DNA of 14,313 bases from Planctomycetota bacterium (lineage in GTDB: Bacteria > Planctomycetota > B15-G4). The notes under the pieces are model-generated. The model ran no database searches, was not told the DNA's origin, and saw only the letters and a list, made by a program, of their open reading frames with translations. Shown here in pieces: positions 1 to 14,313 of this stretch (position 1 is its first letter; the number at the start of each line of letters is the position of its first letter). The DNA lies in contig JBBQUR010000036.1 in NCBI GenBank assembly GCA_038212275.1, positions 1 through 14,313 on the forward strand, read 5' to 3'. The position numbers and the translations under genes are program-made.

Positions 1-529
1 ACTCTCCGGCGTAGGGGGAACGGAATGTTGTCACAGTGCTCAGAGCAACAAGGGAGGTCTCATCCGGTCGCTGGCACCACAGCCAGCGTCAGCTTCGGTA
101 TAAGTTGGCAAAATGAAATCCGAAGCGATGCCGGGTGAGAAATCGGAGGGGGTCGTAGTGCCGTGGATGGCACGTCAAGACAACCGTGCCGGAGGGAAGG
201 GCCCCTGCTTCAACCCTGTCAAGCGAGGAGGTAAGTGACGGTGCATGCCCAATGGGCCAATCACACCCGGTCCGGCTCGGCCGGACCGCAACATCACGAC
301 GACTCCAGCGCGGACTATGCCGCCGGGCCAAGATGGGGAACCGCAATGCTTCCAGCCTGCACTGTGGCGGGCCGCGAACGGAAGCAGTGCGGAGCCCCTC
401 GCACGCCCGCGGCGGACGGTTGTCGGAAAGCCGTATGAAGGAGAACTTCACGTACGGTTTGATGTGGCAGGAGGTGGAGACCAGGCTGCGCGTTGTCGGC
501 GCATCCCAGGCGCCACCTCCTGACCCTGC
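1..529 (+). mobile_element. Group II intron, ORF-less, copy 1 (5' part lies outside the window)
   Basis: Domain V at 428-460 (AAGCCGTATGAAGGAGAACTTCACGTACGGTTT: AGC triad 429-431, CG bulge). Domain VI stem CAGGAGGTGG/CCACCTCCTG with bulged A523. DIII-like GGGGTCGTAGTGCCG...GGGAAGGGCCCC. DIV only ~200 nt, no intact RT ORF. Bases 1-233 match 13943-14174. Confidence 0.93.
245..332 (+). pseudogene. Vestige of the intron-encoded RT/maturase N-terminus
   Basis: GGAGG then ATG at 245 (MPNGPITP). In another frame, 297-332 reads RRLQRGLCRRAK, resembling the IEP RT0 motif (RxLQRxLYxxAK). No YADD or other RT motifs follow before domain V. Confidence 0.6.
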
Positions 530-602
530 CAGCGGGCCGGCTCGGCCGTATGCCGTGCGGAGACTCGGTGGCCGGCCGCTGAGCAGCAGGTCGTCGTCAG
601 GC
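530..602 (+). other. attC site, 3' part (3' exon of intron copy 1)
   Basis: CAGCGGGCCGGC...GCCGGCCGCTG imperfect inverted arms, ending in the core-like GTCAGGC (596-602). Same layout as the intact attC at 12531-12646. Confidence 0.8.
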
Positions 603-618
603 AGGAGCATCGCAAGTC

Positions 619-1023
619 ATGACTGAGCGCGTAGGAACAGGCCGCGTCGATCGCGTGGTGCTCATACTCACCATCCTGGGCCTTTCAGTCTCCCTGTGCT
701 CTCTGATTGTGGACGCCAACTGGCCATCTGAGGAGCCCTTCAGCTTCACCAGTGCGAACCAGACGTTCCCTCGGCTCCTCTTGTACTGGTTCACGGGCAG
801 TGCTTTCGCCATCGCATCTGCCTTCGTTTGGCATCAACGGCTTGTGCTGGCGCGGTCTCTTGCCTATTCGGGCGCCTACTTGATGCTGCTCGGCATCAAC
901 AACGGTGTGTGGGGCACGGCTACCTACATGCCGCATCGTATTGCAGCGCGTGCAGTGAGCCTCACCGTGGCACTTGTCGTCGCAGCTAGGACTCGGAACC
1001 CAAATGTTGTCGCATCCGCCTGA
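619..1023 (+). CDS. Gene-cassette membrane protein, 134 aa, about 4 TM helices, function unknown
   Basis: AGGAG RBS just after core GTCAGGC. Hydrophobic segments. Stop TGA lies inside the inverse core GCCTGAC (1018-1024), the exact complement of the upstream core. Confidence 0.75.
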   Translation: MTERVGTGRVDRVVLILTILGLSVSLCSLIVDANWPSEEPFSFTSANQTFPRLLLYWFTGSAFAIASAFVWHQRLVLARSLAYSGAYLMLLGINNGVWGTATYMPHRIAARAVSLTVALVVAARTRNPNVVASA

Positions 1024-1033
1024 CCCGCCGCTG
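1018..1033 (+). other. attC site, 5' part (R'' plus start of left arm), interrupted by intron stub
   Basis: GCCTGAC-CCGCCGCTG parallels GCCTAAC-TCGCCGCTG (12531) and GGCTAAC-ACGCCGCTG (13649). Confidence 0.78.
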
Positions 1034-1079
1034 GTGTGCCTTCAAAGCTTCTTAGAACTTGCCGGTGGACGTCCGGCCG
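1034..1079 (+). mobile_element. Group II intron 5' stub (copy 2)
   Basis: 40/46 identical to 13665-13710. Starts GTGTG directly after CCGCTG. Similarity ends at about 1079. Confidence 0.85.
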
Positions 1080-1158
1080 ACGTCCGCGACGTCCGCTGCC
1101 TGCGCAACGAGCGCCTCGACCAGTTGCCGACCGAGCACCTGATGGGCGCGTGCGGCTG

Positions 1159-2820
1159 ATGGATCCGGCGGCGCCGGCGCGACGCGGGTGGAGCCGGTGG
1201 CGACGGCGGACAGGTCTCCTCGGCCTCGGGCTGCTGCTGTGCGGCGTGTTGCTGAAAGGCTGCTACGTCCCTCCCGTCGTGCTGGCGGCGGGCGTGCCTG
1301 CACTCGACATCACGGAGTTTCCGCCGGGCGCCGAGCTCGTCGAGGTGCGGGCCGCGCCGGGCATCACGCTGCGGGGCGTGCAGATGGCCCCGCCACCCGG
1401 TGCGCCCGTGGTGCTGCACCTGCTCGAGTCCATGGCATCGATCACGAATGGCTCCCGGCCGTTCGGCACCATCTCGATCGGCGGTGATCCGGAAAGCGAG
1501 GCGGGACAGGTCCGCTCGCTTTCGCAGCTCATGGCCGACGGCTGGCCTGCAGAATCACCGGACGACAAGCTGCGGCTGCAGCACCGCTGGCTCTCTCGCC
1601 TGACGGCGCTGGGACTCGGCGGCCTGGTGCTGGATTACGAAGGCGTGGGCGCGAGCGACGGCGCGCGGAGCCCCGACACGCTGCGCCGCGATGCGCGGGC
1701 CGCCTGGGAGCGAGCCGTCGCGCTCGCGGGCGGCGACGAGCGGCGCGTCATCCTCCGCGGCACGTCGCTGGGCGCGCTGGCGGCGGCCACGCTCCTGCAG
1801 GACGGCGCACGGCCCGGCGCGGTGATCCTGATCGCGCCGGTGCGCGCCGAAACGGTGGCCGTGAACTTCGCGAGCCGCACGTGGAGTCCGGCACTGCTCT
1901 TCGTCGCGCAGTGGTTCGTGCGGGACGCCGTGGACGTGAATCTCGTGGAAGTGCTGGGGCGGCTCGACGTGCCGCTGCTGGTCGTCTCGACGCGAGACGA
2001 TTTCCTGCTGCCGCCCGACGAGGCCGCACTCGTGGCCTCGGCGGTCTCGCGCGCGGGCGGCACGTTCCTTCTGCGGCGCTCGAGCCACGAGGGCCTGTCG
2101 CTCAGCAGCCGCGATGTCCTGGCCGTGGAGCTGGCCTTCTTCGATCGCGTGTTTCCCGCCGTGCGTCCCGGCCGGCTCGACGCGGTGCTCCGCGTCGCGC
2201 AGGATCGGAACATGGATCCGCAGCTGCTTGCGCCAGGAACCCGGGGGCGCGAGCGGCTGGAGGCGCTGCTGGCGCAGACCGCGCTGCCTGCGCCGGAGCT
2301 GACCCTGGCCGCTGTGCTCGCCGGGCTGAGCGACGCGGAACTTGGCAGCGTGTCCGACTGGCTCGCGTGGTTGCCACGGGAACGGATCGGCGCGCTGGCG
2401 CAGCCGGAACTCGATGCGCTGCTGAACCTGCAGGATCCGTCCGGGCGCGTCGACATCGCGTGCCTCGGCGAGACCGCGGCCGCGTGGTCCGCCGTGCCGC
2501 GCGATGCTGCGCAGATTGTCGCGGCTTTCGTGAGCACGGTCCGCTCCGCGAAGCCGGTCTCCGTCGAGTTCGTCATCAGCTTCATCACCGGGAAGGTGGA
2601 GACACCGGATTGCGAAGCGATCGCCCTGAGCGAGTTCCAGAACTCGCGCCGCAAGCTGCTGAAGGACCGCGGCCTGCCGCCCGCCGACGCGGACCGCCTG
2701 ACGCTGCGCGTGATGCTCAAGGCCGCCGGAATTCCGGAGCGCGTCGTGACGGGCGCTGCCGGCGTGTCGTGCGTGCAGGTGTTCGAGGACGGCGTGTGGC
2801 GCGAGTTCGACCTGCCGTGA
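1159..2820 (+). CDS. Alpha/beta hydrolase with N-terminal signal/anchor and C-terminal extension
   Basis: LDYEGVGASDG, nucleophile elbow GTSLG, candidate Asp (RDDFL) and His (SSHEG). Basic plus hydrophobic N-terminus ending LKGC. Start moved to ATG 1159 because the listed start at 1036 lies in the intron stub. Confidence 0.8.
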   Translation: MDPAAPARRGWSRWRRRTGLLGLGLLLCGVLLKGCYVPPVVLAAGVPALDITEFPPGAELVEVRAAPGITLRGVQMAPPPGAPVVLHLLESMASITNGSRPFGTISIGGDPESEAGQVRSLSQLMADGWPAESPDDKLRLQHRWLSRLTALGLGGLVLDYEGVGASDGARSPDTLRRDARAAWERAVALAGGDERRVILRGTSLGALAAATLLQDGARPGAVILIAPVRAETVAVNFASRTWSPALLFVAQWFVRDAVDVNLVEVLGRLDVPLLVVSTRDDFLLPPDEAALVASAVSRAGGTFLLRRSSHEGLSLSSRDVLAVELAFFDRVFPAVRPGRLDAVLRVAQDRNMDPQLLAPGTRGRERLEALLAQTALPAPELTLAAVLAGLSDAELGSVSDWLAWLPRERIGALAQPELDALLNLQDPSGRVDIACLGETAAAWSAVPRDAAQIVAAFVSTVRSAKPVSVEFVISFITGKVETPDCEAIALSEFQNSRRKLLKDRGLPPADADRLTLRVMLKAAGIPERVVTGAAGVSCVQVFEDGVWREFDLP

Positions 2821-2927
2821 GTGCCCCGGTTCGCTCTTTCTCGGCCTCGACGTCGTCACGCAGGGCAAGGGTGACGCACGGGGCTGATCATGTTCGCGGC
2901 GCGCGATCCCCGGGAGGCTTCCGCCTC

Positions 2928-3596
2928 GTGCCTCCGAGATGGCCTCGTCGGCACGGAAGTCGCAGCTTCTTACTCATGGCTGCGTGCCTGTTCAGCCTGA
3001 TCTCGTTGTCCGGCGGCTGCGCAAGCGTGGTGCCGGCGGCGCCCGCGCCGAGGCCGGTGAGTTGGGCCGTGCCGGTGGCCGCCGGTCCGGGCCTGCCTTC
3101 GCTGCATCGCGTCAGCTCGTCGCTCTATCGCTCGGCGCAGCCCACCGAGGAGGGCTTCGAGCGCCTGAGTTCACGAACCAGTCTCCTTCCACCCGATGCC
3201 CCGATCGAGACCGTCCTCTCGCTGCGCGGCTTTCATGTTGACGACGCGCTCGTCACCGGCCCGGGGCTGCGCCTCGAGCAGATCCGCTTTCACACGTGGC
3301 ATGCCGAGGACGAGGACGTGGTCAAGTTCCTGCGCATCGTGACCACGCCCGCGTGCCAGCCGGTGCTGGTGCATTGCCGGCACGGCGCGGACCGCACGGG
3401 AGCGATGGTGGCCATCTACCGCGTCGCGTACGAAGGCTGGACAAAATCACAAGCCCTCGACGAGATGGTCCACGGCGGCTTCGGCTTCCATCCCATGTGG
3501 CAGAACCTGCTGGACTACATCGAGGAACTGGACATCGACGCCATCAAGGCGCAGGTTGCGGAGCAGGGTCGCTGGCCGGTAAGGCCTGCACAGTGA
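2928..3596 (+). CDS. Protein-tyrosine/dual-specificity phosphatase family protein, probable lipoprotein
   Basis: CX5R motif VHCRHGADRTG and LYRSAQP. Signal-like FLLMAACLFSLISLSGGC. Start uncertain: GTG 2928 after GGAGG, or ATG 2976. Confidence 0.85.
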   Translation: MPPRWPRRHGSRSFLLMAACLFSLISLSGGCASVVPAAPAPRPVSWAVPVAAGPGLPSLHRVSSSLYRSAQPTEEGFERLSSRTSLLPPDAPIETVLSLRGFHVDDALVTGPGLRLEQIRFHTWHAEDEDVVKFLRIVTTPACQPVLVHCRHGADRTGAMVAIYRVAYEGWTKSQALDEMVHGGFGFHPMWQNLLDYIEELDIDAIKAQVAEQGRWPVRPAQ

Positions 3597-3608
3597 GACT
3601 CACGGCGC

Positions 3609-6600
3609 TCAGGGCGCGGGCCCCGCGCGCTGCACGATGGACTCGAAGGCCTCGACGCCCTGCAGCGAAGCAAAGTCCGTGTCGCGCAGCCGCGGCCGAT
3701 CCGAGAATCCCTTGGCGACGGCCTCGTCGAGCATCGCGAGGCACAACTCTTCCGAGCGCAGGGCGATCTCGGCGTCGGCCGACGCGGCATGCGCTGCCTC
3801 CGCGGCCTCCGCTGCCACGGGTCCGCCCTCACCGGCGCTTCCGCGCGCAGCGGCGGCGAGTCGCCCGGTGATCTGCGCGCCCTGAAACAGGATGTCCGGC
3901 CGACGCCCGCCCAATTCGAAGGCCTCCTCGCACACGGCCAGCGCCTCGTCGAAGTCGCCCGTGGCGCGGTGCACGTCGGCGAGCTGGAACAAGGCGCTGG
4001 CGAGCTGGCTGCCCACGTCATTGCTGTCCGGCGCGGCCGCGCGCATCTGCCGCACGTTGGCCACGCCGTCCTGCGCTTCGCCCAGCGCGCGCTCCGGATC
4101 GCCGAGATTCAGATGCATGCCCGACGCCACGGCCAGCGCCGCGCCGAGGAAGTAGCTGTACTGCAGATTGTCGGGAAACTCCGTGACGAGACGCTCGAGC
4201 GTCGCGCACGACTCCTCGATGAGCGTCGCGGCCTCGGCGAAGCGCTTCTGGTTGCCCAACTCCGCACTGAGATTGATGCCGATGACCGCGGCGCTCTGGC
4301 CATACGACGGCTCACGCGGAAACTCCTGCGCGAGGCTGCGGCCGGCCTCGAGTCCCGCACCGAGCACCTCCACCGCCTCCGTGCGGTCCGCGCGCGACAT
4401 GAGCAGCAGCCCGAAGTTGTTCGCGGCTTCGACGATGTCGTGGCGCAGCAGGCGGTCACGCGGGTGGTCGCGCCGCAGGCGGATGAGCGCCTCGAAGGCC
4501 GTGCGGAACATCGCCTCGGACTCCTTTCCGTGACCGAGCGCGATGCCCGCCGTGGCGGCGCCATTGAGCGCGGCGGCGTACTGGATCGCGTAGTCCACGG
4601 ACTCGGGGTGGTCGCGGTGAAGCCGCTCCGCCGTCCCGGCCGCGAGCAGGTAGAGCTGGCGCCCCTCTTCGTCATCGCCGAAGTCGTTCGCAAGGCGCGC
4701 GAGGTTCGACAGCACGATCACCTGGTCGCGCAGCCACGAAGGTGCCGGATCGGGCCGCCCGGTCAGGCCTTCGAGCAACTCGAGCGCCTCGCCGTACGTC
4801 GCGCGCGCCTCGTCGAGCCGGCCGGCATCCTGCTCCAGCGTGCCCACCTGCGAGAGGCAGCCCGCGAGCATGTGAATCAGCTCGCCGTCCTCCGGCGCCT
4901 CCGCCACCAGGCCGCGCAGCGTGGCGATGATCTCGTCGAAGGTCGCGAGCGCTTCGTCGCGGCGCCCGAGTTCCAGCAGGATGTCGCCGATGGAACGCAG
5001 CGTGCGCGCGTGCTCGGCGCGCGGCACGACGTCGCCGGGCTGCTCGGTGCTCAGCTCGCGGTAGAAGACGAGCGCGCGTTCGAGCAGCGCGATGCGCGTG
5101 TCCTCCATGCCGGGCAGGTTCTCCAGGTCGTTGGAGCCGACCTCCCAGAGCATCTGGTCCACGGCCTGCAGCGTGCGCTGGTAGCCGCGCTCGCTGGCCT
5201 GGCGTTGCAGCGTTTCCGCAGCCAGCGAGCGCTGCAGGGCCTGCCGGCCCGCGCTCAGCTCGTCGTTGAGGCGGCGCTGCTCGTCCGCGGCGCGCGACTG
5301 CAGCATGCCGTAGCCCACGGGCCCGCCGACGAGCAGCACCGCGCCGAGCACGGAGGCCAGCGCGCGCGCCGGGTTGCGCTGCGCCCAGCGCCGCAGTCGC
5401 AGCGTCGGTCCCGGACGGCGCGCGGACACCGGGCGCAGCTCCAGCGCGTTCTGCAGATCCTCGGCGAAGGCCGCCGCGTCGACGTAGCGGCGTTCGCGCT
5501 CGAGAGACATCGCGCGCTGGCAGACGGTCTCGGCGTCGCGCGGCACGGCCGCATTGAGGTCGCGCAGCGGGATGAGGCGGCCGTCGAGGATGCGCTGGCG
5601 CGTGGCCTCGATGTCGCCGCCGGTGAAGGGCGAGCGCAGCGTGAGCATCTCGTAGAGCGTGGCGCCAAGCGAGTAGACGTCGGTGCGCGCGTCAAGATCG
5701 CCGTGCTCGCCGCGCACCTGCTCCGGCGACATCCACGCCAGCGAGCCGAGCTGCGCGCCGCTGCCCGTGATGCGTTCGCTGCCCGCGGCCGCCGCGAGGC
5801 CGAAGTCGATCAGCAGCACGCGGCCCTCCGGCGTCAGCATGATGTTGCTGGGCTTGATGTCGCGATGCAGGACGCCCTGCTCGTGGGCGTGCTGCAGCGC
5901 GTCCGCGACGAGGCGCACGATGCGCAGGCAGGTCGCGGCCCACGTGCCGGCGAACAACTCCCCGGCCGTCGCACTCGAGCCCGTGCCGCGGCTTGCGCTG
6001 GCCGCTGCGCCGCCCGTGCCGCGGCTTGCGCTGGCCGCCGCGCCGCCCGTGCCGCGGCTTGCGCTGGCTGCCGCGCCGCCCGTGCCGCCCGTGCCGCTCG
6101 TGCCGACGGAGCTGCCGCCACTCGCCTCGCGCCGGGCCGTCAGCACCTCGACCGCGCGGCGCAGGTGCGCGCCGGTGAGCCGCGACGGGTCGCGTCCGGC
6201 AAGCGCCGTGAGCAGCTCTTCCAGCGAGGCGCCGCGCACGCGCTCCATTGCGTAGTACGGGATGCCCTTGTCCTCGCCCGCGGCGTACACCGGGATGATG
6301 CCCGGATGCGCGAGCCGCGCGACGGCCTCGACCTCGCGCCGGAAGCGGTCGCGCGCGCCGGGAAAGTAGAGCAGGTCCGGGCGCACGAGCTTGAGCGCGA
6401 CGCGGCGCTGCAGGCCGTCCTGCTCCGCGACGAAGACGACTCCCATGCCGCCGCCGCCGAGCCGGCCGAGGATGCGGAACTCGCCGATGCGCTCGGGCAG
6501 CGGCGCGTCCTTCGGCGGCGCGCCGATGAAGCCGATGGCGCGGAGCTGTTCGACGCGCGCCCGCAGCGCGCTGGCCTGGCCCGGGTGCGCGACGCACAGC

Positions 6601-6719
6601 GCCTCGAGCGCCGGCGGTCCTTCGCGCTCGATTCTCTCGAGCGCCTGCGCGACGAGGTCCGAGAGCGACGCCGGCTGCGCATCGTCGCGTGGAGGGTTTG
6701 AGGGGGCGCGCGAACGCAT
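3609..6719 (-). CDS. Hanks-type Ser/Thr protein kinase with TM helix and C-terminal TPR-like repeats
   Basis: GGGGMGVV, VALK, HRDIKPSN, DFG, WMSPEQ, DVYSLG motifs. Hydrophobic ALASVLGAVLLVGGPVGYGML. Helical repeats afterwards. Confidence 0.95.
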   Translation of the reverse strand: MRSRAPSNPPRDDAQPASLSDLVAQALERIEREGPPALEALCVAHPGQASALRARVEQLRAIGFIGAPPKDAPLPERIGEFRILGRLGGGGMGVVFVAEQDGLQRRVALKLVRPDLLYFPGARDRFRREVEAVARLAHPGIIPVYAAGEDKGIPYYAMERVRGASLEELLTALAGRDPSRLTGAHLRRAVEVLTARREASGGSSVGTSGTGGTGGAAASASRGTGGAAASASRGTGGAAASASRGTGSSATAGELFAGTWAATCLRIVRLVADALQHAHEQGVLHRDIKPSNIMLTPEGRVLLIDFGLAAAAGSERITGSGAQLGSLAWMSPEQVRGEHGDLDARTDVYSLGATLYEMLTLRSPFTGGDIEATRQRILDGRLIPLRDLNAAVPRDAETVCQRAMSLERERRYVDAAAFAEDLQNALELRPVSARRPGPTLRLRRWAQRNPARALASVLGAVLLVGGPVGYGMLQSRAADEQRRLNDELSAGRQALQRSLAAETLQRQASERGYQRTLQAVDQMLWEVGSNDLENLPGMEDTRIALLERALVFYRELSTEQPGDVVPRAEHARTLRSIGDILLELGRRDEALATFDEIIATLRGLVAEAPEDGELIHMLAGCLSQVGTLEQDAGRLDEARATYGEALELLEGLTGRPDPAPSWLRDQVIVLSNLARLANDFGDDEEGRQLYLLAAGTAERLHRDHPESVDYAIQYAAALNGAATAGIALGHGKESEAMFRTAFEALIRLRRDHPRDRLLRHDIVEAANNFGLLLMSRADRTEAVEVLGAGLEAGRSLAQEFPREPSYGQSAAVIGINLSAELGNQKRFAEAATLIEESCATLERLVTEFPDNLQYSYFLGAALAVASGMHLNLGDPERALGEAQDGVANVRQMRAAAPDSNDVGSQLASALFQLADVHRATGDFDEALAVCEEAFELGGRRPDILFQGAQITGRLAAAARGSAGEGGPVAAEAAEAAHAASADAEIALRSEELCLAMLDEAVAKGFSDRPRLRDTDFASLQGVEAFESIVQRAGPAP
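5980..6096. repeat. 33-bp in-frame tandem repeat (3 copies plus partials) inside the kinase domain
   Basis: Unit CCCGTGCCGCGGCTTGCGCTGGCCGCTGCGCCG with minor variants; encodes (GTGGAAASASR)x3 on the minus strand. Confidence 0.92.
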
Positions 6720-6741
6720 GGGGGCGCAGTCTATCCGCGGC

Positions 6742-6954
6742 TCACGCGGAGTCTGACGGCGACGTGCTCTCCGGCAGCAGCCCCAGGTCGCCGAGGATGA
6801 TGAGCCGGGCGAGCAGGCGCTGCGCCTCCTCGGGGTGGGCAGCCAGCATCGCCGCCACGCCCGGCATGCCCGCCACCTCGAGGATCTCCAGGCATCTGAC
6901 CGTGAGGTCGAGCAGGTCCTGCGGGACAGGCGGCGGTGGTGGGGCGGGTGACAT
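6742..6954 (-). CDS. 70-aa protein homologous to the N-terminal pre-kinase domain of the downstream kinase
   Basis: ATG at 6954 with GAGGT RBS just upstream. 18/47 ungapped identities to the kinase N-terminus. Stops 22 bp before the kinase start. Confidence 0.75.
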   Translation of the reverse strand: MSPAPPPPPVPQDLLDLTVRCLEILEVAGMPGVAAMLAAHPEEAQRLLARLIILGDLGLLPESTSPSDSA

Positions 6955-7123
6955 CGGAGACCTCACTCCCTGAATCCGGATTCCGGCGCAAACGTCACAG
7001 GAAGAACCGCGCCCGGAGCCGGCGCCGCGCCCCGGCCGGGCACTGCGGAGATGCAGCGGATACGATGCCTCCGCCCGCGACGCGGCCGTCAGCCGTCCGG
7101 TCCTCACTCGAGCGCCCCACCAC

Positions 7124-7735
7124 ATGGACCAGGAAAGCCAGTTGCTCGTGCAGCGCGCCACGCAGGGCGACGCTCGTGCCGTCGAGGCGCTGCTCGCGCA
7201 GAACCTGCCGGCCCTGCGCGCGTGGGTGCGGCTGCGCTGCGGCCCGGTGCTGCGCTCGCGCGAGTCGGCCAGCGACATCGTGCAGTCCGCCTGCCGCGAG
7301 GTGCTGCAGCACATCGACCGCTTCCGCTGGAACGGCGAGGCCGGCTTCCGCGCGTGGCTCTACGCGACGACCGCGCGCAAGATCGCGGACCGCGCCGACC
7401 ACTGGCAGGCGCAGCGCCGCGACGCCGCCCGCGAGGTGCCGATGCACGCGCCGGGCCCCGACGGCGACACGCAGGTGCTGGACGTCTACCGCTCCTTCTG
7501 CTCGCCCAGCGCCATGGCGACAGGCCGCGAGACAATGGATCGCATCGAGCGCGCCTTCGAGAAGCTGGCCGACGACGAGCGCGAGATCATCGTGATGTCG
7601 CGCATCGCCGGCCTCACCGGCGCGGAGATCGCGGAGAAGCTCAACTGCAGCGAAGCCGCCGCACGCCAGCGCCTCTTCCGCGCGCTGGCCAATCTCTCCG
7701 AAGCGCTCGAGGGCGAGGGCGGCGCGGCCGGGTGA
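7124..7735 (+). CDS. ECF sigma-70 factor, planctomycete kinase-associated type
   Basis: QGDARAVEALL, SASDIVQ (sigma 2.2), FRAWL, and region 4 EREIIVMSRIAGLTGAEIAEKLNCSEAAARQRLFRAL. Confidence 0.93.
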   Translation: MDQESQLLVQRATQGDARAVEALLAQNLPALRAWVRLRCGPVLRSRESASDIVQSACREVLQHIDRFRWNGEAGFRAWLYATTARKIADRADHWQAQRRDAAREVPMHAPGPDGDTQVLDVYRSFCSPSAMATGRETMDRIERAFEKLADDEREIIVMSRIAGLTGAEIAEKLNCSEAAARQRLFRALANLSEALEGEGGAAG

Positions 7736-7803
7736 CGGACGGCGGCCGCAGCGCTGCGCTGCAAGCCTCACGGGAACGAGACGTGAAGGACTCCGGCAGG
7801 AGC

Positions 7804-7848
7804 CGCGCCGCGCGCCGCACCGGGGGAGGAGTTGCGGCGCGGCGCGCG
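7804..7848. terminator. Imperfect GC-rich hairpin between convergent genes, possible terminator
   Basis: CGCGCCGCGCGCCGCA ... TGCGGCGCGGCGCG inverted arms; no U-tract. Confidence 0.35.
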
Positions 7849-7868
7849 GGCCGCAGTGGCGGGTCAGG

Positions 7869-8795
7869 TCACGGCGTCGTGGCGCGCAGGCCGTTCGTCG
7901 CGGTGAGTCCCGCGGGACCCGTCGCGTCCACGATCCACTCCTGGAAGTAGAGCGAGAAACCTGACGGCAAGCCTGCGGGCCACACGGCGGGAAGTATCAG
8001 CGTGCCGGCGGGGCCGGTGGGCAGGCCGGTGATGATGATGGTCGGTGTGGGGACGAGCGTGCCGCCCTTGAAGGGCACGTTGGCCGCGCCGGCGCCGACG
8101 AACAGCGCGGCGCTGGAGTTGGCCTTGGCGCCGGTGAGGTCCAGCGAGATCGGGTCGCCGGCGAACAGCGTGCCCGAGCCGGTGAGGACAGGTGCGGGGT
8201 TCGCGCCGGCCAGGCCGAGGCCGAGGTCGGTCCACGTGCCGACGCGCGTGAGCTCCACGCGGTAGTCGGCGTCCGGGTCGGAGTTGTCGGCGTAGTAGTG
8301 GTCGTAGGCGCAGAGGAAGAGGTGCGTCGCGCCGGCCGGCACGAGCACCGTGACGACGGGCGACGTGGGCGTGCCGAGGAAGAAGTCTTCGGCGATGTCC
8401 GTGGCCTGGTTGCCCTGGAAGGTCGTGATGGTGAAGAAGTCCTCGCCGGCATCGATCGCGTCGGGCACGCGGTGGAGCAGCGCCGCGCCGAGCAGCGTGG
8501 CGCTCGAGCTGAACACGCCGAGCGTGTCCGTGACCACGTCGCCGCCGGGGCCCTGGTCGAAGTCGCCGAGAACGCGCAGCCGCACCGACGTGCCGGGCAG
8601 CAGGCCCAGCGGCGCGAGCGCGACGGGCACCGCGTTCACCACCGAGTCCGAGTTGACGTGCAGGAAGCTCCCCTTGGCGGTCAGCGGCACGACGGTCTGT
8701 GCGGCGAGCGGCGTCAGCGCACTGCCGGCGACGAGGGCAAGCGCCACCGCCGCGAACGAGGCGAGCGGCATGCGAGACAGCAGGTCGGTGGACAT
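7869..8795 (-). CDS. Secreted hypothetical protein, paralogue A (308 aa)
   Basis: Signal peptide ending LAA-Q. Collinear with 8877-9782 (FLHVNSD, GPGGD, DAG, DNSDP, near-identical C-terminus). Confidence 0.85.
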   Translation of the reverse strand: MSTDLLSRMPLASFAAVALALVAGSALTPLAAQTVVPLTAKGSFLHVNSDSVVNAVPVALAPLGLLPGTSVRLRVLGDFDQGPGGDVVTDTLGVFSSSATLLGAALLHRVPDAIDAGEDFFTITTFQGNQATDIAEDFFLGTPTSPVVTVLVPAGATHLFLCAYDHYYADNSDPDADYRVELTRVGTWTDLGLGLAGANPAPVLTGSGTLFAGDPISLDLTGAKANSSAALFVGAGAANVPFKGGTLVPTPTIIITGLPTGPAGTLILPAVWPAGLPSGFSLYFQEWIVDATGPAGLTATNGLRATTP

Positions 8796-8876
8796 GGGAA
8801 AACTCCGAAAAGTGTGGTGGTGAGCCGTGGTACGCGGTGATGCGTGGTGCGCGGTGCGGCGAGGCTGCGGATCAGG

Positions 8877-9782
8877 TCACGGTGTCGTGGCTTGCAGGCC
8901 GTTCGTCGCGGCGAATCCGGCGGGGCCGGAGGCGTCTGCGATCCACTCCTGGAAGTAGAGCGAGAAGCCGGACGGCAGGCCGGCGGGCCACGCGGCGGGA
9001 AGTGACAGCGCGCCGGCCGGGCCGGTGGGGAGGCCCGTGATGATGAGGTCGGGCGTCGGCACGAGCGTGCCGCCCTTGAGCGGCGCGTTGGCCACGCCGA
9101 AACCGACGATGAGCGCGGCGCTGGAGTTGGCCTTCGCGCCGGTGAGGTCCAGCGTGATCGGCTCGCCGCCGATCAGCGTGCCGGTGCCGGTGAGCAACGG
9201 CGTGCCGCCCGCGCCGGCCAGGCCGTGTCCCAGGTTGGTCCAGCAGCCGACGACCGTGACCTGCAGCGCGTAGTTGCCGTTCGGGTCGGAGTTGTCCTGG
9301 AAGAGCTGGTCGGACGGGCACACGAACAGGAAAGCCGCGCCGGCCGGCACCTTGATGACGATGTCATCGACGCCGGTGGTCGAGATGCTGAAGTCCTCGT
9401 CGATGTCCGTGACCTGGTTGCCGAAGTAGGTGTTCGAGGTCAGCACGTCGATGCCGGCGTCGATCGCGCCCGGCACGCGGTGCAGGTTCGAGCCGGCGAG
9501 CAGCACGCTGCTCGAGCTGAACACGCCGATCATCGACGTGAAGGTGTCGCCGCCCGGGCCGTTGTCGAAATTGCCGAGGCGCGACAGACGCAGGCACTTG
9601 CCGGGCGCGGCACCCAGCGACGCGAGCGAGATGGCCGGCGCGTTGAGCGCGTTGTCCGAGTTGACGTGCAGGAAAGCGACCCTGGGGTCGATCGGCACAG
9701 TCGTGGTCTGCGCGGACAGCGGCGCGGCGAATGAGGTCAGAGCAAGCGCGGCAGCCGCGAGCGGAGCGAGGCGGAGGGACAT
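8877..9782 (-). CDS. Secreted hypothetical protein, paralogue B (301 aa)
   Basis: AAGGAG RBS, signal peptide ending LSA-Q, tandem paralogue of 7869-8795. The ATG itself reads at 9780-9782. Confidence 0.85.
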   Translation of the reverse strand: MSLRLAPLAAAALALTSFAAPLSAQTTTVPIDPRVAFLHVNSDNALNAPAISLASLGAAPGKCLRLSRLGNFDNGPGGDTFTSMIGVFSSSSVLLAGSNLHRVPGAIDAGIDVLTSNTYFGNQVTDIDEDFSISTTGVDDIVIKVPAGAAFLFVCPSDQLFQDNSDPNGNYALQVTVVGCWTNLGHGLAGAGGTPLLTGTGTLIGGEPITLDLTGAKANSSAALIVGFGVANAPLKGGTLVPTPDLIITGLPTGPAGALSLPAAWPAGLPSGFSLYFQEWIADASGPAGFAATNGLQATTP

Positions 9783-9974
9783 GGGGAGACTCCTTGGGGT
9801 GATCGTCGTGGCAGGGCATCGTGCACCCGCTTCGAGCTGCCGTGCAAACCGAAGCTGCCGCTGCCGGCATGACGGAATCGGTGGCGGCGCGCGCGTGTGA
9901 CAGCTGAATTCAGCACGGCCCGGATGTGGGCCGGCCCGACGGCAGCGCGGCCTGTTGCGGCGCGGCCGCCAGGC

Positions 9975-10169
9975 GCGGCGGACCGGGGCAGCAGACCGGC
10001 GCAGCGGACCGGCGCAGCGGGCCGGCGCAGCGGACCGGCGCAGCGGACCGGCGCAGCGGGCCGGCGCAGCGGACCGGCGCAGCGGACCGGCGCAGCGGAC
10101 CGGCGCAGCAGACCGGCGCGGCAGACCGGCGCAGCGGACCGGGGCAGCGGACCGGCGCGGCGGCTCGGC
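9975..10169. repeat. 13-bp tandem repeat, about 15 copies, consensus GCAGCGGACCGGC
   Basis: Contiguous units without spacers, in the divergent intergenic region. Variants GCAGCAGACCGGC and GCAGCGGGCCGGC recur. Confidence 0.95.
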
Positions 10170-10290
10170 AACCGCTGCGCCGCATCCTGACCGTCGTGGC
10201 CTTCGAGCGGCCGGGCGTGCGACAGCACATCGGGCGCATGGCCAGGTCCGTCGCTACGATGTGAGCCCACATCCGACGGGAGAACGGACG

Positions 10291-10716
10291 ATGACGATGC
10301 AGCTCAACCGATTGACCCCCCTGGCCTACTTCCTGCTGCGCGTCGTGGCGGGGCTCATGTTCTTCCAGGTCGGCTCGATGGTCATGCTCGGCTGGTTCGG
10401 CGGCATGCCGGGCGGCGCGGCCTCGCCACCGGAAATCTTCTCGCAGACATGGTTCGGCGGGCTGCTCGAGCTGGTCGGCGGCGCGCTTGTCATGGTGGGG
10501 CTGTTCACGCGGCCGGCCGCCTTCCTCGTGTCGGGGGAGATGGCCGTCGCGTACTTCCAGTTCCACTACATGACGCGCGGTGGTTGGCCGGTGCAGAACG
10601 ACGGCCAGCCCGCCGTGCTCTACTGCTTCGTCTTCCTGCTCATCGCCGCGCAGGGCGCCGGCATCTGGAGCGTGGACGCGATGCTGCAAAAGCGCGAGGC
10701 CGCCGCGCACCGCTGA
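10291..10716 (+). CDS. DoxX family membrane protein
   Basis: LLRVVAGLMFF, GLLELVGGALVMVGLFTRPAAFLVSGEMAVAYF, GAGIWSVD. GGAGA RBS before ATG 10291. Confidence 0.9.
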   Translation: MTMQLNRLTPLAYFLLRVVAGLMFFQVGSMVMLGWFGGMPGGAASPPEIFSQTWFGGLLELVGGALVMVGLFTRPAAFLVSGEMAVAYFQFHYMTRGGWPVQNDGQPAVLYCFVFLLIAAQGAGIWSVDAMLQKREAAAHR

Positions 10717-10808
10717 CCGGCGCGCCGCGCACCACTGACCGGCCCGGAGCCGGTGTGCGACCGATCGATATCCTGTCTCCTCTTTTCCCAATGCCCCGGA
10801 GCGATTCC

Positions 10809-11168
10809 ATGAAGTACGTCGATGGCTACCTGCTGCCCATTCCCACCAAGAACCTCAAGGCCTACACCGCGATGGCCAAGGTCGGCGCGAAGGTGTGGAA
10901 GGATCACGGCGCGCTGCAGTACTGCGAGAGCGTCGGCGAGGACCTGAAGCCGCCGTTCGGCATCCCGTTCCCCAAGCTGATGAAGACCAAGAAGGGCGAG
11001 ACGGTCGTCTTCGCCTTCGTGGTCTACAAGTCGCGCAAGCACCGCGACACCGTCAACGCCAAGGTGATGAAGGACCCGCGCCTGGCCAAGTTCATGGACC
11101 CGAAGAACATGCCCTTCGACTGCACGCGCATGGTGTACGGCGGGTTCTCGGCGATTGTCGGGGGGTGA
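10809..11168 (+). CDS. DUF1428 (YbaA-like) protein
   Basis: YVDGYLLPIP, WKDHGAL, ETVVF, HRDTVNAKVMKDPRL, MPFD..RMVYGGF. Confidence 0.9.
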   Translation: MKYVDGYLLPIPTKNLKAYTAMAKVGAKVWKDHGALQYCESVGEDLKPPFGIPFPKLMKTKKGETVVFAFVVYKSRKHRDTVNAKVMKDPRLAKFMDPKNMPFDCTRMVYGGFSAIVGG

Positions 11169-11199
11169 GAGGACTGGACTTGCGGCGAGGATGCACCAC

Positions 11200-11757
11200 A
11201 TGGCAAGCAGCATGAAAGCCAAGGAACAAGGGCAGTTGATTCGCGCTTTGAAGGATCGCTTCGAAGCGAACATGCCTCGGCATGCCGGACTCTCGTGGGC
11301 CAAGGTGCAAACCCGGCTCGAGGGACATCCTGCTGCCGTGAGTGTGCTGCAGGAGATGGAACGCACGGGCGGCGAGCCGGATGTCATCGGCCAGGACAAG
11401 GCGACCGGCCAGGTGACCTTCTGCGACTGCTCTCCGGAGAGTCCCGAAGGTCGCCGGAGCACCTGCTACGACGGCGAAGCGCTTCGGTCCCGCAAGGAGA
11501 ACCGTCCGAAGAGCAGCGCCGTCGACACGGCCGCCGCCACGGGCATCGAGCTGCTGACCGAGGAGCAGTATCGCGCACTGCAGAAGCTGGGCGAGTTCGA
11601 CATGAAGACGTCGAGCTGGGTGAGCACGCCGCCGGATATCAGGGCGCTGGGGGGAGCGATCTTCTGCGACAGGCGCTACGGCAAGGTGTTCACGTATCAC
11701 AATGGAGCGGCTTCGTATTATGCGGCGAGGGGGTTTCGGGGGGCGGTTCGAGTCTGA
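11200..11757 (+). CDS. DUF4256 domain protein
   Basis: RFEANMPRH, EMERTGGEPDV, DCSPESPEGRRSTCYD, KTSSW, YHNGAASYYAARGFRG. GAGGA RBS; exact start uncertain. Confidence 0.85.
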   Translation: MASSMKAKEQGQLIRALKDRFEANMPRHAGLSWAKVQTRLEGHPAAVSVLQEMERTGGEPDVIGQDKATGQVTFCDCSPESPEGRRSTCYDGEALRSRKENRPKSSAVDTAAATGIELLTEEQYRALQKLGEFDMKTSSWVSTPPDIRALGGAIFCDRRYGKVFTYHNGAASYYAARGFRGAVRV

Positions 11758-12057
11758 CGCACTGATGGTGCGGGCGCGCCGGAGAACGTGGGTTGCGGGA
11801 GAGGGGCGAGCAGATGGTCAGGTTCGACACTGCGTCGACGGCGCATACGCTTTCCGGTCACAAGCTGTGGTCATCCCGTGGTATCCTCCGGCGCGATACG
11901 CTGATCGCGCCCATCGCAGCATCCGGGGGAAGGAATGTGCGTACCGAAGTCATCTCGGGAGAGCGACTTGCGAACGAAATATACCCATCGATCCCGCCGC
12001 GATAGGCAGGTGTGCGGGAGTGGTCACGGCTCGTTGAGCAGGTCCGTTGAAATCATA

Positions 12058-12064
12058 GTCAGGC
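12058..12064 (+). other. Cassette 5' boundary core site (GTCAGGC); upstream half is not an attC (attI-like or secondary site)
   Basis: GTCAGGCGC pairs, with one mismatch, with GCGCCTAAC at 12529-12537. It lies about 30 bp before the cassette ORF. Confidence 0.55.
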
Positions 12065-12089
12065 GCACGACGTCTGCAGGAGGATGCCA

Positions 12090-12461
12090 ATGAACTGGTA
12101 CATCGAAGTCATGAAGAAGTACACCGTCTTCAGTGGCAGGGCCCGCCGCAAGGAGTACTGGATCTTCTTTCTCTTCAATTCGATCTTCATTTTCGCACTC
12201 GTCCTTATTGACAATCTCGCCGGTCTCGCCGACCGTCACACTGGCTACGGACCTCTGGGAATTCTGTACTCTCTCGCGGTGCTTATTCCGAGCATCGGTG
12301 TCGGTGTCCGACGACTTCACGACACAGATCGGAGCGGCTGGTGGCTCTTGATCGCCTTCGTGCCCATCATCGGCGCAATCGTCCTCTTGGTCTTTCAAGT
12401 GAGCGATAGCCAGGCCGGAAGCAATCGCTACGGACCCAATCCTAAGGATGTCGCGGCGTGA
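12090..12461 (+). CDS. DUF805 (YhaH/YhaI-like) inner-membrane protein, gene cassette
   Basis: MNWY..KKY..FSGRARRKEYW, VRRLHDTDRSGWW, NRYGPNPK. AGGAGG RBS. Confidence 0.92.
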   Translation: MNWYIEVMKKYTVFSGRARRKEYWIFFLFNSIFIFALVLIDNLAGLADRHTGYGPLGILYSLAVLIPSIGVGVRRLHDTDRSGWWLLIAFVPIIGAIVLLVFQVSDSQAGSNRYGPNPKDVAA

Positions 12462-12530
12462 TATTCTCGGGGTGGTGTTGTCGGGCGCGGTCCTGCTTCG
12501 ACTCGTTCAGCTCACGATCGTCAGGGCAGC

Positions 12531-12646
12531 GCCTAACTCGCCGCTGCAGCAGACCGGCCGCAGCAGCAGACCGGCCGCAGGTGACGCGAGTGGCTTCGCG
12601 ACACAGCCATGCGCGGCCGGACTGCTGAGCGGCCGAGTCGTTAGCC
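12531..12646 (+). other. Intact attC site (116 bp), no intron
   Basis: R'' GCCTAAC 12531-12537 and R' GTTAGCC 12640-12646. Arms TCGCCGCTGCAGCAGACCGGCCG / CGGCCGGACTGCTGAGCGGCCGA. Internal 17-bp tandem duplication at 12547-12580. Confidence 0.9.
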
Positions 12647-12671
12647 AAACGATGAAGCTTCGCTAAATAAG

Positions 12672-13640
12672 ATGCCGCCCAACGGAGACCTTCCAAGCAA
12701 CTGCTTCATCTGCCGAAGTGCGGTATCCATTGCCTCAAGAAGTGGAATTCGCGATGCCGTCGATATCGCCTGTCCGCGCTGCGGTGAGTACGGCCTCAGT
12801 GGCTCCCTTGCAGTAGAGCTTGGCCATTCGGGCCCGCTCAACAAGAAGACGGGCGCTGCGATCAGCTTCTCGGTCCGGCATATGTCGCGCCAGATGCGTA
12901 ACCCGCTCATCACGCACGAGCTTCTTAGCTCGCTGATCACTGATGCCGTATTGCCGAGCCCCGCAGAGCAGGCAGATCGGATGGTGCTGTGGTTAGGTGA
13001 CAACCTTGAGGGGCCTGGAACAACCGTCGCGATCGAGGTCGTGTCGTATTCCTCGATCATCGGCGCACTTGATGCGGCAGGCGTTCATTTCATCCTGAAG
13101 GCACTACTGGACCGTAAGCTTATTATTGGGGCTAACCAGGTTGGCCCAGTTCAGCAGCTCTCACTGTCGTTCACTGGATGGCAAGAGTATGCCGCACTCA
13201 AGAAAGGCTCCGTGGTGAGCCGGCGGGCATTCATGGCCATGGCGTACAGCAACCTTGCACTTACCAACATTTATCGGGAGCAGTTACGGCCGGCCACGAA
13301 ACAAGCTGGCTTTGACCTTCGTCGTCTGGATGAAGAGCCGCCTGCGGGTTTGCTTGATGCCCGCTTGCGCGTGGAAATCCAGCTTGCTCGGTTTGTCGTC
13401 GCTGATCTCACCGATGCTAACGCAGGAGCGTATTGGGAAGCTGGTTATGCCGAGGGGCTGGGCAAGCCTGTCATCTATACTTGTCGCCACGACGTGTTCA
13501 CCACCAGAGGAACACACTTTGATACGAGTCACCACCATACCATCAAGTGGGATCCTGATAACCCGGCAGATGCCGCGCAGGCACTCAAAGCAACAATCCG
13601 CGCAACGCTTCCCGCTGAAGCCAGAATGCAAGATGAGTAG
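12672..13640 (+). CDS. Cassette protein: Cys-pair (Zn-ribbon-like) N-terminus plus nucleoside 2-deoxyribosyltransferase/TIR-like C-terminal domain
   Basis: CFIC and CPRCG. AFMAMAYS ... ARFVVADLTDANAGAYWEAGYAEGLGKPVIYTC ... HFD. Visibly more AT-rich than the central block. Bounded by GTTAGCC and GGCTAAC. Confidence 0.8.
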   Translation: MPPNGDLPSNCFICRSAVSIASRSGIRDAVDIACPRCGEYGLSGSLAVELGHSGPLNKKTGAAISFSVRHMSRQMRNPLITHELLSSLITDAVLPSPAEQADRMVLWLGDNLEGPGTTVAIEVVSYSSIIGALDAAGVHFILKALLDRKLIIGANQVGPVQQLSLSFTGWQEYAALKKGSVVSRRAFMAMAYSNLALTNIYREQLRPATKQAGFDLRRLDEEPPAGLLDARLRVEIQLARFVVADLTDANAGAYWEAGYAEGLGKPVIYTCRHDVFTTRGTHFDTSHHHTIKWDPDNPADAAQALKATIRATLPAEARMQDE

Positions 13641-13648
13641 CACCCGTT

Positions 13649-13664
13649 GGCTAACACGCCGCTG
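13649..13664 (+). other. attC site, 5' part, interrupted by intron copy 3
   Basis: GGCTAAC is the exact complement of GTTAGCC (12640). It is followed by ACGCCGCTG and then the intron GTGTG. Confidence 0.85.
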
Positions 13665-14174
13665 GTGTGCCTTGAAAGGTTCTGAGGACTTGCCGGTGGA
13701 AGTCCGGTCGTGGTAACCGCCAGAGGGCCACGTAGCAGACTCCCGCTGCTTTTGGGCGACCCGGGGTGGCGAACCGGAGTGTCCCCTCGTGAAGAGGGCG
13801 CAAGGCAGCAGTCCGTACCATGAAGGAAATCCTGCAGCGTCGAAGAGTTAACCCCGCAAGGGGAGCAAGAGAGTGCCGAGCGTCTCAGCGAATCGCGAAG
13901 GCCATGGAGGGGGTGAAGGCTCTTGAAGCGCAGCCCCGAAGAACTCTCCGGCGTAGGGGGAACGGAATGTTGTCACAGTGCTCAGAGCAACAAGGGAGGT
14001 CTCATCCGGTCGCTGGCACCACAGCCAGCGTCAGCTTCGGTATAAGTTGGCAAATGAAATCTGAAGCGATGCCGGGTGAGAAGTTGGAGGGGGTCGTAGT
14101 ACCGTGGATGGCACGTCAAGACAACCGTACCGGAGGGAAGGGCCCCTGCTTCAACCCTGTCAAGCGAGGATGTA
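13665..14174 (+). mobile_element. Group II intron copy 3, domains I-III, interrupted at the start of DIV
   Basis: 5' GTGTG (GUGYG). GCCGAG...GCGAAGGC element enclosing putative EBS1 CAGCG (13886-13890). 13943-14174 differs from 1-233 by 6 substitutions and 1 indel. Confidence 0.92.
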
Positions 14175-14313
14175 CTGAGTCTTGCATTGGATAGGGAGTG
14201 AACGTGTCACCATCCGAGTGCCTCGCGGATGTAGCTCACTTCGGGGTGGCCGAAGAAAGCGCGCACACGTTCGCGGTCACTCTTGACGTTGGCAAGCTCG
14301 TCCTCGACCGCCT
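14175..14313 (-). mobile_element. IS630-family-like insertion sequence, right end (partial)
   Basis: Intron similarity stops right after a TA (14173-14174), the IS630 target. A minus-strand ORF tail ends 32 bp from the junction. Confidence 0.7.
14207..14313 (-). CDS. C-terminus of a probable IS630-family transposase (partial)
   Basis: Manual translation AVEDELANVKSDRERVRAFFGHPEVSYIREALGW*, resembling the 'xRxFFxHPxVxYI' tail of IS630 transposases. Not in the ORF track. Confidence 0.62.
   Translation of the reverse strand, partial: AVEDELANVKSDRERVRAFFGHPEVSYIREALGW

Follow-up and report, generated by a model that had tools for sequence, protein, structure and literature searches.

The contig JBBQUR010000036.1 (C36), one of the 40 contigs of a 91% complete metagenome-assembled genome (MAG) of a Planctomycetota bacterium (assembly GCA_038212275.1), was analyzed in its entire length of 14.3 kb, which is referred to below as the window. 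We consider it very probable that the window holds part of an integron-type cassette array which was invaded by group II introns of an endonuclease-less, IIB-like (non-IIC) lineage, and that this lineage recognizes the gene-sense strand of attC recombination sites by RNA pairing. A first-pass annotation, made from the DNA letters, had proposed that one intron family occupies three of four attC sites in the window at the same nucleotide. All three copies were indeed found at the same base of their sites; every copy is fragmentary, however, and a possible fifth attC remnant is also present.

Intron copies and their junctions in the window

Copies 2 and 3 both open with GTGTGCC directly after the core site R″ of an attC plus 9 nt that end in CGCCGCTG, with the introns starting at positions 1034 and 13665. 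In the case of copy 2, the attC 5′ arm (1018..1033, plus strand; identified by reading of the sequence and from the repeat table) consists of R″ GCCTGAC and the 9 nt CCGCCGCTG. In the case of copy 3, the arm (13649..13664, plus strand) consists of R″ GGCTAAC (13649-13655) and the 9 nt ACGCCGCTG (13656-13664), and it holds the candidate intron-binding sites (IBS) IBS2 at ~13651-13657 and IBS1 at 13660-13664. Copy 1 is represented by its 3′ part (1..529, plus strand) and begins with intron nt 279, the 5′ part being absent because the contig starts there. Its 3′ junction reads ..CCTGACCCTGC|CAGCGGG at 529|530, and the 3′ arm of the attC that it splits (CAGCGGGCC...GTCAGGC; 530..602, plus strand) then runs to R′ at 596-602. 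The frame shared by the copies is GSCTRAC-N9|GTGTG...CCCTGC|CAGC. An unoccupied attC is also present (12531..12646, plus strand; R″ GCCTAAC 12531-12537, R′ GTTAGCC 12640-12646) and reads uninterrupted CCGCTG|CAGC at 12541-12550. The common start of copies 2 and 3, the end of copy 1 before an attC arm terminating in GTCAGGC, and the agreement of the joined exons CCGCTG|CAGC with the empty site had all been claimed by the first-pass annotation and were borne out.

Copies 1 and 3 were matched by Rfam models of group II introns. RF02003 (group-II-D1D4-4) matched positions 13690-13823 in copy 3 with 76.7 bits (cut-off 49). RF00029, which covers domains V and VI (DV-DVI), matched positions 426-529 in copy 1, ending exactly at the 3′ splice site, with a score of 39.3 bits (E 7e-5, relaxed threshold) that lies just under the cut-off of 40 bits. 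DV of copy 1 (427-460) is full-length (~34 nt), with the AGC triad described before (429-431) and a two-base bulge; DVI (464-525) carries a bulged branch adenosine, A523, 7 nt from the 3′ end. Copy 3 (13665..14174, plus strand) comprises the 5′ 510 nt of the intron, i.e., domains DI to DIII and the start of DIV, with candidate exon-binding sites (EBS) EBS2 (GAGTTAA, 13845-13851) and EBS1 (CAGCG, 13886-13890). Copies 1 (1-233) and 3 (13943-14174) overlap at 97% identity and give a composite intron of 806 nt, in agreement with the ~807 nt predicted previously. Compared with a 1.93-kb relative from Binatia, copy 1 is an internal deletion derivative from which ~1.2 kb of the open reading frame (ORF) is gone; what remains of its DIV is ~115 nt at the beginning, where the reverse transcriptase (RT) ORF starts (VTVHA...), and ~35 nt directly ahead of DV.

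Distribution of relatives and conservation of the insertion register

A DNA search of the 15 other genomes of the same family yielded no intron copy, and among 401 Planctomycetota genomes matches were found in 12 others, merely as short conserved patches. The distant relatives behind these patches are either protein-encoding introns or ORF-less copies from Brocadia, both described below. An exact-pattern DV-DVI scan of 185,579 species genomes gave 28 loci from about ten phyla. At six of these loci the 3′ exon is attC-like, extending from CAGCGG or CACCYG to GTTAGSC; a 23-kb stretch of one Eisenbacteria contig holds three of the six, and one each was found in Binatia, in Acidobacteriota and in an unclassified MAG. 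Comparison of the 5′ 510 nt of the window intron with those genomes revealed full-length copies of 1.93 kb in Eisenbacteria (three) and Binatia, showing 79% nucleotide identity over the first 506 nt, and an ORF-less copy of 599 nt in the Acidobacteriota MAG. The junctions of the relatives read GCATAAC-ATCCGCTTG|intron|CACCCGG...GTTAGGC, GCCTAAC-AACAGCATG|intron|CAGCGG... and GCCTAAC-AAGGCTATG|intron|CACCTG...GTTAGAG, and that of the 599-nt copy reads GCCTAAC-AGCAACTG|intron|GAGCCG....

A metagenome scan with a 26-nt pattern taken solely from the intron 5′ end detected 33 loci, 32 of which are distinct. Together with five loci from the relatives' genomes and two from the window, these gave a set of 39 5′ junctions. 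The trinucleotide [AG]AC was located 9 nt upstream of the junction in 31 of the 39 cases, 8 nt upstream in five and 10 nt upstream in one, and it was absent in two. The logo of the exons, G-16 S C T A A C-10 ... T-2 G-1, with A-11 in 37 and T-2 in all 39 junctions, is the R″ consensus at a fixed register. As the same geometry recurs in unrelated genomes, the pattern is not due to chance. The tabulated flanks, 37 of 39 being attC-like, support the earlier proposal that the lineage is specialized on attC sites.

Pairing of EBS1 and EBS2 with the target

EBS1 is situated in a hairpin loop at intron nt 222 and is complementary to the last 5 to 8 nt of the intron's own 5′ exon. The EBS1/IBS1 pairs are CAGCG/CGCTG in the window, CAAGC/GCTTG and CATGC/GCATG in Eisenbacteria, CACAAAT/ATTTGTG in Brocadia, and CAACCAAT/ATTGGTTG in a deltaproteobacterial relative that does not reside in attC. 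Of 38 introns, 23 allowed both loops to be located. In 12 of these 23, EBS1 forms at least 5 Watson-Crick pairs in a row counted from position -1, compared to 7% of 484 mismatched intron-exon combinations, and the mean run was 3.8 with the intron's own exon versus 2.1 with mismatched ones.

The EBS2 stretch is single-stranded, lies ~35 nt upstream of EBS1 and is followed by a hairpin with a GNRA cap. Almost every attC-resident member has ATGTTAG here, which is complementary to CTAACA(T), i.e., to the R″ core and the next base at positions -14 to -8. In this fixed register a mean of 5.0 out of 7 positions pair, and the EBS2 candidate of the window forms 5 of 7 pairs with CTAACAC; the first-pass annotation had likewise noted an EBS2 candidate. 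At locus L085, the exon reads GCCATCA and the intron TGATGGC, corresponding to two double compensatory changes. An RNAalifold consensus of 14 sequences contained 140 pairs, 48 of them with compensatory changes, with EBS2 unpaired and EBS1 in a hairpin loop. We read these features as an EBS2-IBS2 pairing that is fixed on the R″ core, and such a pairing would explain the constant 9-nt register.

Intron-encoded protein and intron class

The cognate intron-encoded protein (IEP) of the relatives has 437 amino acids (aa) and carries RVT_1 and GIIM domains but lacks an endonuclease domain. The RT active site is YCDD in all seven distinct attC-resident IEPs (L074, L076, L086, L087, L089, L099, and L110), compared to YADD in 13 of 15 non-attC rows, including the IIC-attC reference; no match was obtained for L030 and L061, whose ORFs are degraded. 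A maximum-likelihood tree built from 22 rows (19 different) separates the attC-resident IEPs from the rest by a branch that has 99/100 support; the tree contains one IIC-attC reference, and L061 sits on a very long branch. The reference intron is inserted antisense directly behind blaIMP-4 on the Pseudomonas aeruginosa plasmid pP378-IMP. Its IEP is 37.9% identical to that of the clade and occupies a long branch elsewhere in the tree, and in Rfam its RNA corresponds to D1D4-3 (134 bits) and D1D4-1 instead of D1D4-4. The affiliation of the RNA with D1D4-4 and the separate IEP clade support the previous suggestion of a lineage independent of the IIC-attC introns. The nearest annotated plasmid genes to the IEP belong to Leptospira introns (59-61% identity). 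Judged by its RNA, the lineage is IIB-like and fails the class C tests: its ribozyme is ~600 nt long and has a full-length DV bearing the AGC triad, an EBS2 stretch is present, and IBS1 is long.

A simpler explanation would be ordinary homing of an intron within one array of similar attC sites, without any specialization on attC at the level of the lineage. It would fit the fact that the three targets in the window share CGCCGCTG|CAGC, that only 6 of the 28 DV-DVI loci have attC-like 3′ exons, and that distant relatives of the same Rfam family are found at unrelated sites: the IEP-bearing Planctomycetota relatives L030 to L033 are all located at CATG|CAATG, in L032 directly upstream of a gene's start codon, and others occur in Brocadia, Kosmotogaceae and Terriglobia. 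We nevertheless regard homing within one array as improbable, since relatives from at least five phyla and 32 metagenome contigs keep the R″ register despite differing IBS1 sequences, EBS2 is complementary to the core itself, and the attC-resident IEPs form one clade.

The relatives in Candidatus Brocadia pituitae (AP021856.1; L038, L039, L047, and L058) comprise at least four ORF-less copies of ~780 nt with an unusual 5′ end, GCGTG. One Brocadia copy begins directly after the 3′ end of another, in a tandem or nested arrangement.

attC sites, orientation of the introns, and integron integrase

The empty attC of the window has the RYYYAAC...GTTRRRY frame, and its bottom strand folds with -42.0 kcal/mol (z -5.1) and bulged bases. 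R″ of the site of copy 2 (GCCTGAC, 1018-1024) is the exact complement of GTCAGGC downstream of copy 1 (596-602), and either 5′ half, when rejoined with the 3′ half downstream of copy 1, forms an imperfect hairpin of 90 nt. Overall, the sites are imperfect hairpins of 85 to 120 nt with bulges that directly follow short co-oriented ORFs. A home-made scan counted one attC-like site per 14 kb on the window contig versus 0 to 1.4 per 100 kb on the other contigs, and BLAST of the window attC sequences against their own genome found nothing beyond the window contig. In the Eisenbacteria stretch, the same scanner detected seven unoccupied attC-like sites with an AAC-N9|CAGC layout besides the three occupied ones, and after in silico removal of the introns one of the three occupied sites scored highest of all (34). 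Among ten relatives with both exons available, the rejoined site scored at least 24 in four and 19 to 21 in three; a score of at least 24 was obtained for 3% of 180 mismatched exon pairs and for none of four non-attC relatives. The expectation that rejoined exons would resemble attC sites was supported by the hairpins in the window and by the four high-scoring relatives.

The intron and all three cassette ORFs of the window are located on the plus strand, in line with the sense insertion proposed before. The first cassette ORF (619..1023) codes for a small membrane protein of 134 aa with a weak TM7S3_TM198 match below the cut-off, and its stop codon overlaps the next R″ (1018-1024). The second (12084..12461) codes for a protein of 125 aa with a DUF805 domain match, and the third (12672..13640) for a protein of 322 aa whose C-terminus is nucleoside 2-deoxyribosyltransferase-like, the match being weak and below the cut-off. 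In Eisenbacteria, two cassette ORFs (342 and 326 aa) terminate 4 to 5 nt before an occupied R″ and lie on the strand of the intron, so the sense orientation is not specific to the window. Since the core sites are palindromic when taken by themselves, the top strand was assigned from the direction of the ORFs and the geometry of the cassettes.

An integron integrase gene (TIGR02249, 431 bits, over the curated NCBIfam cut-off) was found in the same MAG at C30:36583-37680, 1.8 kb from the end of the 39-kb contig C30. Integron integrase was likewise detected in all four relatives' genomes tested, three times over the cut-off and once as a partial match, and over the cut-off in none of 14 control genomes. 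As intI is located on another contig and has no attC-like sites beside it, the window either resembles a cluster of attC sites lacking integron integrases (CALIN), or the link was lost in assembly.

Observations that weigh against the assignment

Several findings speak against an attC-specialized IIB-like lineage, and some of them concern the target sites. The attC calls are based on structural criteria and the home-made scanner rather than on a curated covariance model, and the top-strand call is based on ORF orientation, not on extrahelical bases. Two of the three occupied Eisenbacteria sites stayed below the threshold after in silico intron removal, and three of the ten rejoined relatives scored poorly. 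The home-made scan found no attC-like site anywhere on the 39-kb contig C30 with intI, and in the Eisenbacteria MAG intI is ~1.3 Mb away from the occupied sites; the sites are of the CALIN type, and their use by IntI is assumed. The basis of the attC calls and the location of intI in both genomes would also be compatible with the idea that the hairpins are palindromic intergenic repeats of another kind, similar to repetitive extragenic palindromic sequences or miniature inverted-repeat transposable elements. This idea appears very unlikely to us in view of the RYYYAAC...GTTRRRY frame, the position of bulged hairpins of 85 to 120 nt directly after short co-oriented ORFs, and the presence of an integrase over the cut-off in the genome of the window and in three of four relatives' genomes versus none of the 14 controls.

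Other findings of this kind concern the introns themselves. None of the three copies in the window is whole, and copy 1 ends with GC, the penultimate base being changed compared to the AC of all relatives. The EBS1 run is shorter than 5 in 11 of the 23 introns, so a perfect IBS1 is evidently not required. Covariation at EBS2 was observed at a single locus, L085, and the exons are too uniform for a shuffle control of the EBS2 complementarity. No EBS3 column covarying with the first base of the 3′ exon, which is C in most introns and G in three, was found within the first 340 nt of 12 sequences. The nearest solved RTs by sequence are of class C (GsI-IIC, 212 bits), followed by IIB (176 bits) and LtrA/IIA (167 bits), and the IEP was not placed in a named class (D, E, F or other).

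Proposed route of attC invasion

The junctions and pairings described above suggest how an attC-specialized IIB-like intron might reach its sites. A ribonucleoprotein of intron lariat and IEP would reverse-splice into the sense strand of attC. EBS2 (consensus ATGTTAG) would pair with CTAACA of the R″ core at positions -14 to -9, and the EBS1 hairpin loop with the 5 to 8 variable nt just upstream of the insertion point, and the intron would always land within the 5′ hairpin arm, 8 to 10 nt, usually 9 nt, downstream of the AAC in R″. The RT/maturase of the intron could then carry out cDNA copying with replication-fork primers, a general mechanism outlined in a review (PMC4424553); such primers would be needed because the IEP has no endonuclease domain. 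Insertion of 0.8 to 1.9 kb of intron DNA would split the attC stem, and IntI should consequently fail to fold or use the site. Given its sense orientation, removal of an intact copy from cassette transcripts by splicing would be possible.

In a broader view, which we consider somewhat better supported than its opposite, the introns form a cross-phylum, endonuclease-less IIB-like clade in which EBS2 is hard-wired to the R″ core, so that any attC would be a landing pad on the sense strand and EBS1 alone would drift. This would be a second solution to attC targeting, by RNA-DNA pairing and not via a folded bottom-strand hairpin, and the clade would be a widespread, overlooked agent that freezes environmental cassettes while remaining silent through splicing.

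Comparison with known systems and implications

The first-pass annotation had assumed that the described attC-targeting introns belong to class IIC. This holds insofar as no intron inside attC was found to have been described as IIB-like, but it overlooked IIB introns located just after attC, which are reported in PMC7923331. According to a 2015 review (PMC4424553), three target specificities are known among bacterial group II introns, and targeting of attC is restricted to class C. According to the reviews, IIC-attC introns insert into the attC bottom strand, opposite to cassette transcription (PMC3001079), and use a DNA stem-loop and a short IBS1 (PMC3001079, PMC4424553). Introns of this type (S.ma.I2, Kl.pn.I3) resemble the present lineage in having an endonuclease-less RT/maturase, in their site-specific insertion in attC and in the ability to occupy several sites per array. 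In contrast to their antisense, bottom-strand insertion, the present lineage is oriented in sense to the cassettes and splits the 5′ arm 9 nt downstream of R″, and instead of a class C RNA it has a D1D4-4 RNA with a full-length DV, an EBS2 stretch and an IBS1 of 5 to 8 nt.

Closest in setting are the IIB introns that Sonbol and Siam reported in 2021 from cassette arrays of halophiles, UHB.I2 (IIB1/CL1) and H.ha.F1/F2 (class E) (PMC7923331). According to that paper, these are likewise non-IIC introns with endonuclease-less IEPs in cassette arrays or CALINs, and UHB.I2 is co-oriented with the cassettes. They differ from the present lineage in position, being located immediately after or downstream of the attC-like structure instead of within it, and in IEP class as assigned in the paper; neither conserved exons at their flanks nor a pairing with the core site is reported for them. 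The same paper also cites an unusual class C intron in the attC top strand of Enterobacter cloacae. This intron shares the top-strand, sense-oriented attC insertion, but, as cited there, it is a single class C intron and not an IIB-like clade with EBS2 (PMC7923331).

Conventional endonuclease-less IIB introns retrohome by EBS1/EBS2/EBS3 pairing and replication-fork priming, according to PMC4424553. They are similar to the present lineage with respect to target pairing by EBS1 and EBS2, proteins with only RT and X domains, and ORF-less derivatives. In contrast to them, the homing site in our case is a multi-copy structural recombination site, and one pairing appears to be fixed on its conserved core, which would create a target across hosts. 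A full-text literature search, with subscription-only papers outside its scope, gave no description of an IIB-like lineage inside attC or of an EBS2-R″ pairing, and the intron lineage is apparently undescribed.

If the assignment is correct, a second attC-specific lineage would represent a convergent capture of integron sites by retroelements, distinct from IIC-attC introns in ribozyme type, strand, position and recognition logic. The pairing of EBS2 with the R″ core would provide a simple, testable rule for how RNA addresses a structure-defined recombination site. Expressed but non-excisable cassettes and fused multi-gene cassettes are predicted for environmental arrays, and the cassette arrays of MAGs would be under-called because attC finders will miss sites that are split by introns. 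A naturally attC-directed IIB-like intron could also serve as a targeting scaffold.

State of the intron copies and assembly of the contig

All three copies in the window look like relics, copy 1 being ORF-deleted with a mutated 3′ end, copy 2 a 46-nt stub, and copy 3 disrupted by an insertion sequence (IS). An intact RT/maturase ORF in domain IV is absent from the window, where the copies are ORF-less or truncated, and the cognate RT was not found in the 91%-complete bin. The only other RT of the bin is that of an unrelated group II intron, which is located at C12:1-900 and is cut by the contig start; its DV reads GAGCCGGATGAC..., its site is not attC-like, and its protein with RT and GIIM domains is 31% identical to the IEP of the attC clade. 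Among the sequencing runs listed as containing this DNA there are two DNA runs of one study, probably of the source sample, and no RNA run. One contig of one run (depth 29.9) skips 173 nt of the DIV remnant (window 248-422), and an even shorter ORF-less intron variant therefore exists in the same sample.

The stub of copy 2 (1034..1079, plus strand) is 87% identical to copy 3 and joins non-cassette chromosomal DNA at 1079|1080. A separate Logan contig of 5,234 nt from the same sample covers positions 498-5731 without difference, and the stub and its chromosomal junction are therefore no assembly slip. The breakpoint region (1055-1110) lies within a run of GACGTCCG repeats (GGACGTCCGGCCGACGTCCGCGACGTCCGC), which suggests that microhomology-mediated deletion or slippage may have joined the stub to the chromosomal DNA. 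When a 3′ remnant of copy 2 was sought near 11760-12064, just a weak attC-arm-like alignment was obtained. Similar 5′ stubs, diverging within 50 to 200 nt, were observed at 6 of the 33 metagenome loci (L080, L093, L095, L098, L100, and L102); 5′ stubs are not a product of incomplete reverse transcription, because that would truncate the other end.

Copy 3 is interrupted at intron nt 510 by an element inserted at the TA dinucleotide 14173-14174. The window contains the end of this element (14175..14313), with the C-terminus of the transposase on the minus strand; the transposase of ~340 aa, read on contig C27, has DDE_3 and HTH domains, and we take the element to be IS630-like. Its terminal 141 nt are common to three contig ends (the end of C36, the end of C27 and the start of C7), indicating at least two insertion contexts of the IS element in the sample. 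The contig ends of the MAG overlap by exactly 141 nt, and the assembler k was therefore 141. Contigs of the sequencing run cross the junction 13664|13665 with 22 nt on the intron side, short of 31 nt. Chimeric joins at repeated sequences during metagenome assembly might be suspected as the source of the repeats, as both ends of the contig consist of repeats, the last 141 nt recur at two other contig ends, and the intron regions have 2 to 4 times the depth of the unique cassettes, but such an artefact is the least credible explanation of all, given that copy 2 is merely 87% identical to copy 3 and has no long k-mer in common with it, that the Logan contig spans both stub junctions, and that the same architecture is present in independent genomes, including on contigs of 1.5 and 1.27 Mb.

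Other features of the window

The stub of copy 2 is bounded by an ordinary chromosomal segment (1080..~11760, with the strand left unspecified) outside the intron system. Its GC content is mostly 65-78%, with 70-78% directly after the stub and 62-65% in the last ~1 kb, and it encodes an alpha/beta hydrolase, a Ser/Thr kinase with TPR, DUF1428 and DUF4256 proteins, paralogous unknown ORFs, and a small membrane-protein ORF of uncertain family. A non-coding stretch (~11760..12083) follows, in which a possible fifth attC remnant ends with GTCAGGC at 12058-12064; its alignment is weak. A scan of the window for promoters and terminators gave nothing above shuffled sequences.

Within the chromosomal segment, a 13-bp tandem repeat (GGCGCAGCGGACC; 14.8 copies, 91% match) is present at 9972-10163, ~130 nt upstream of the small membrane-protein ORF (10292-10717), and its period is no multiple of three. 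A 33-bp repeat (3.3 copies) and a 9-bp repeat are located at 5979-6105 inside the ORF of the Ser/Thr kinase-TPR protein (3609-6719, minus strand; 1,036 aa), and the depth of the matching contigs of the sequencing runs peaks at these repeats (190 versus ~45). The minus strand also carries a tandem pair of paralogous ORFs of ~300 aa each (7869-8795 and 8877-9782), which have no Pfam match; their DNA (7859-8681 versus 8867-9689) shows 71-86% identity.

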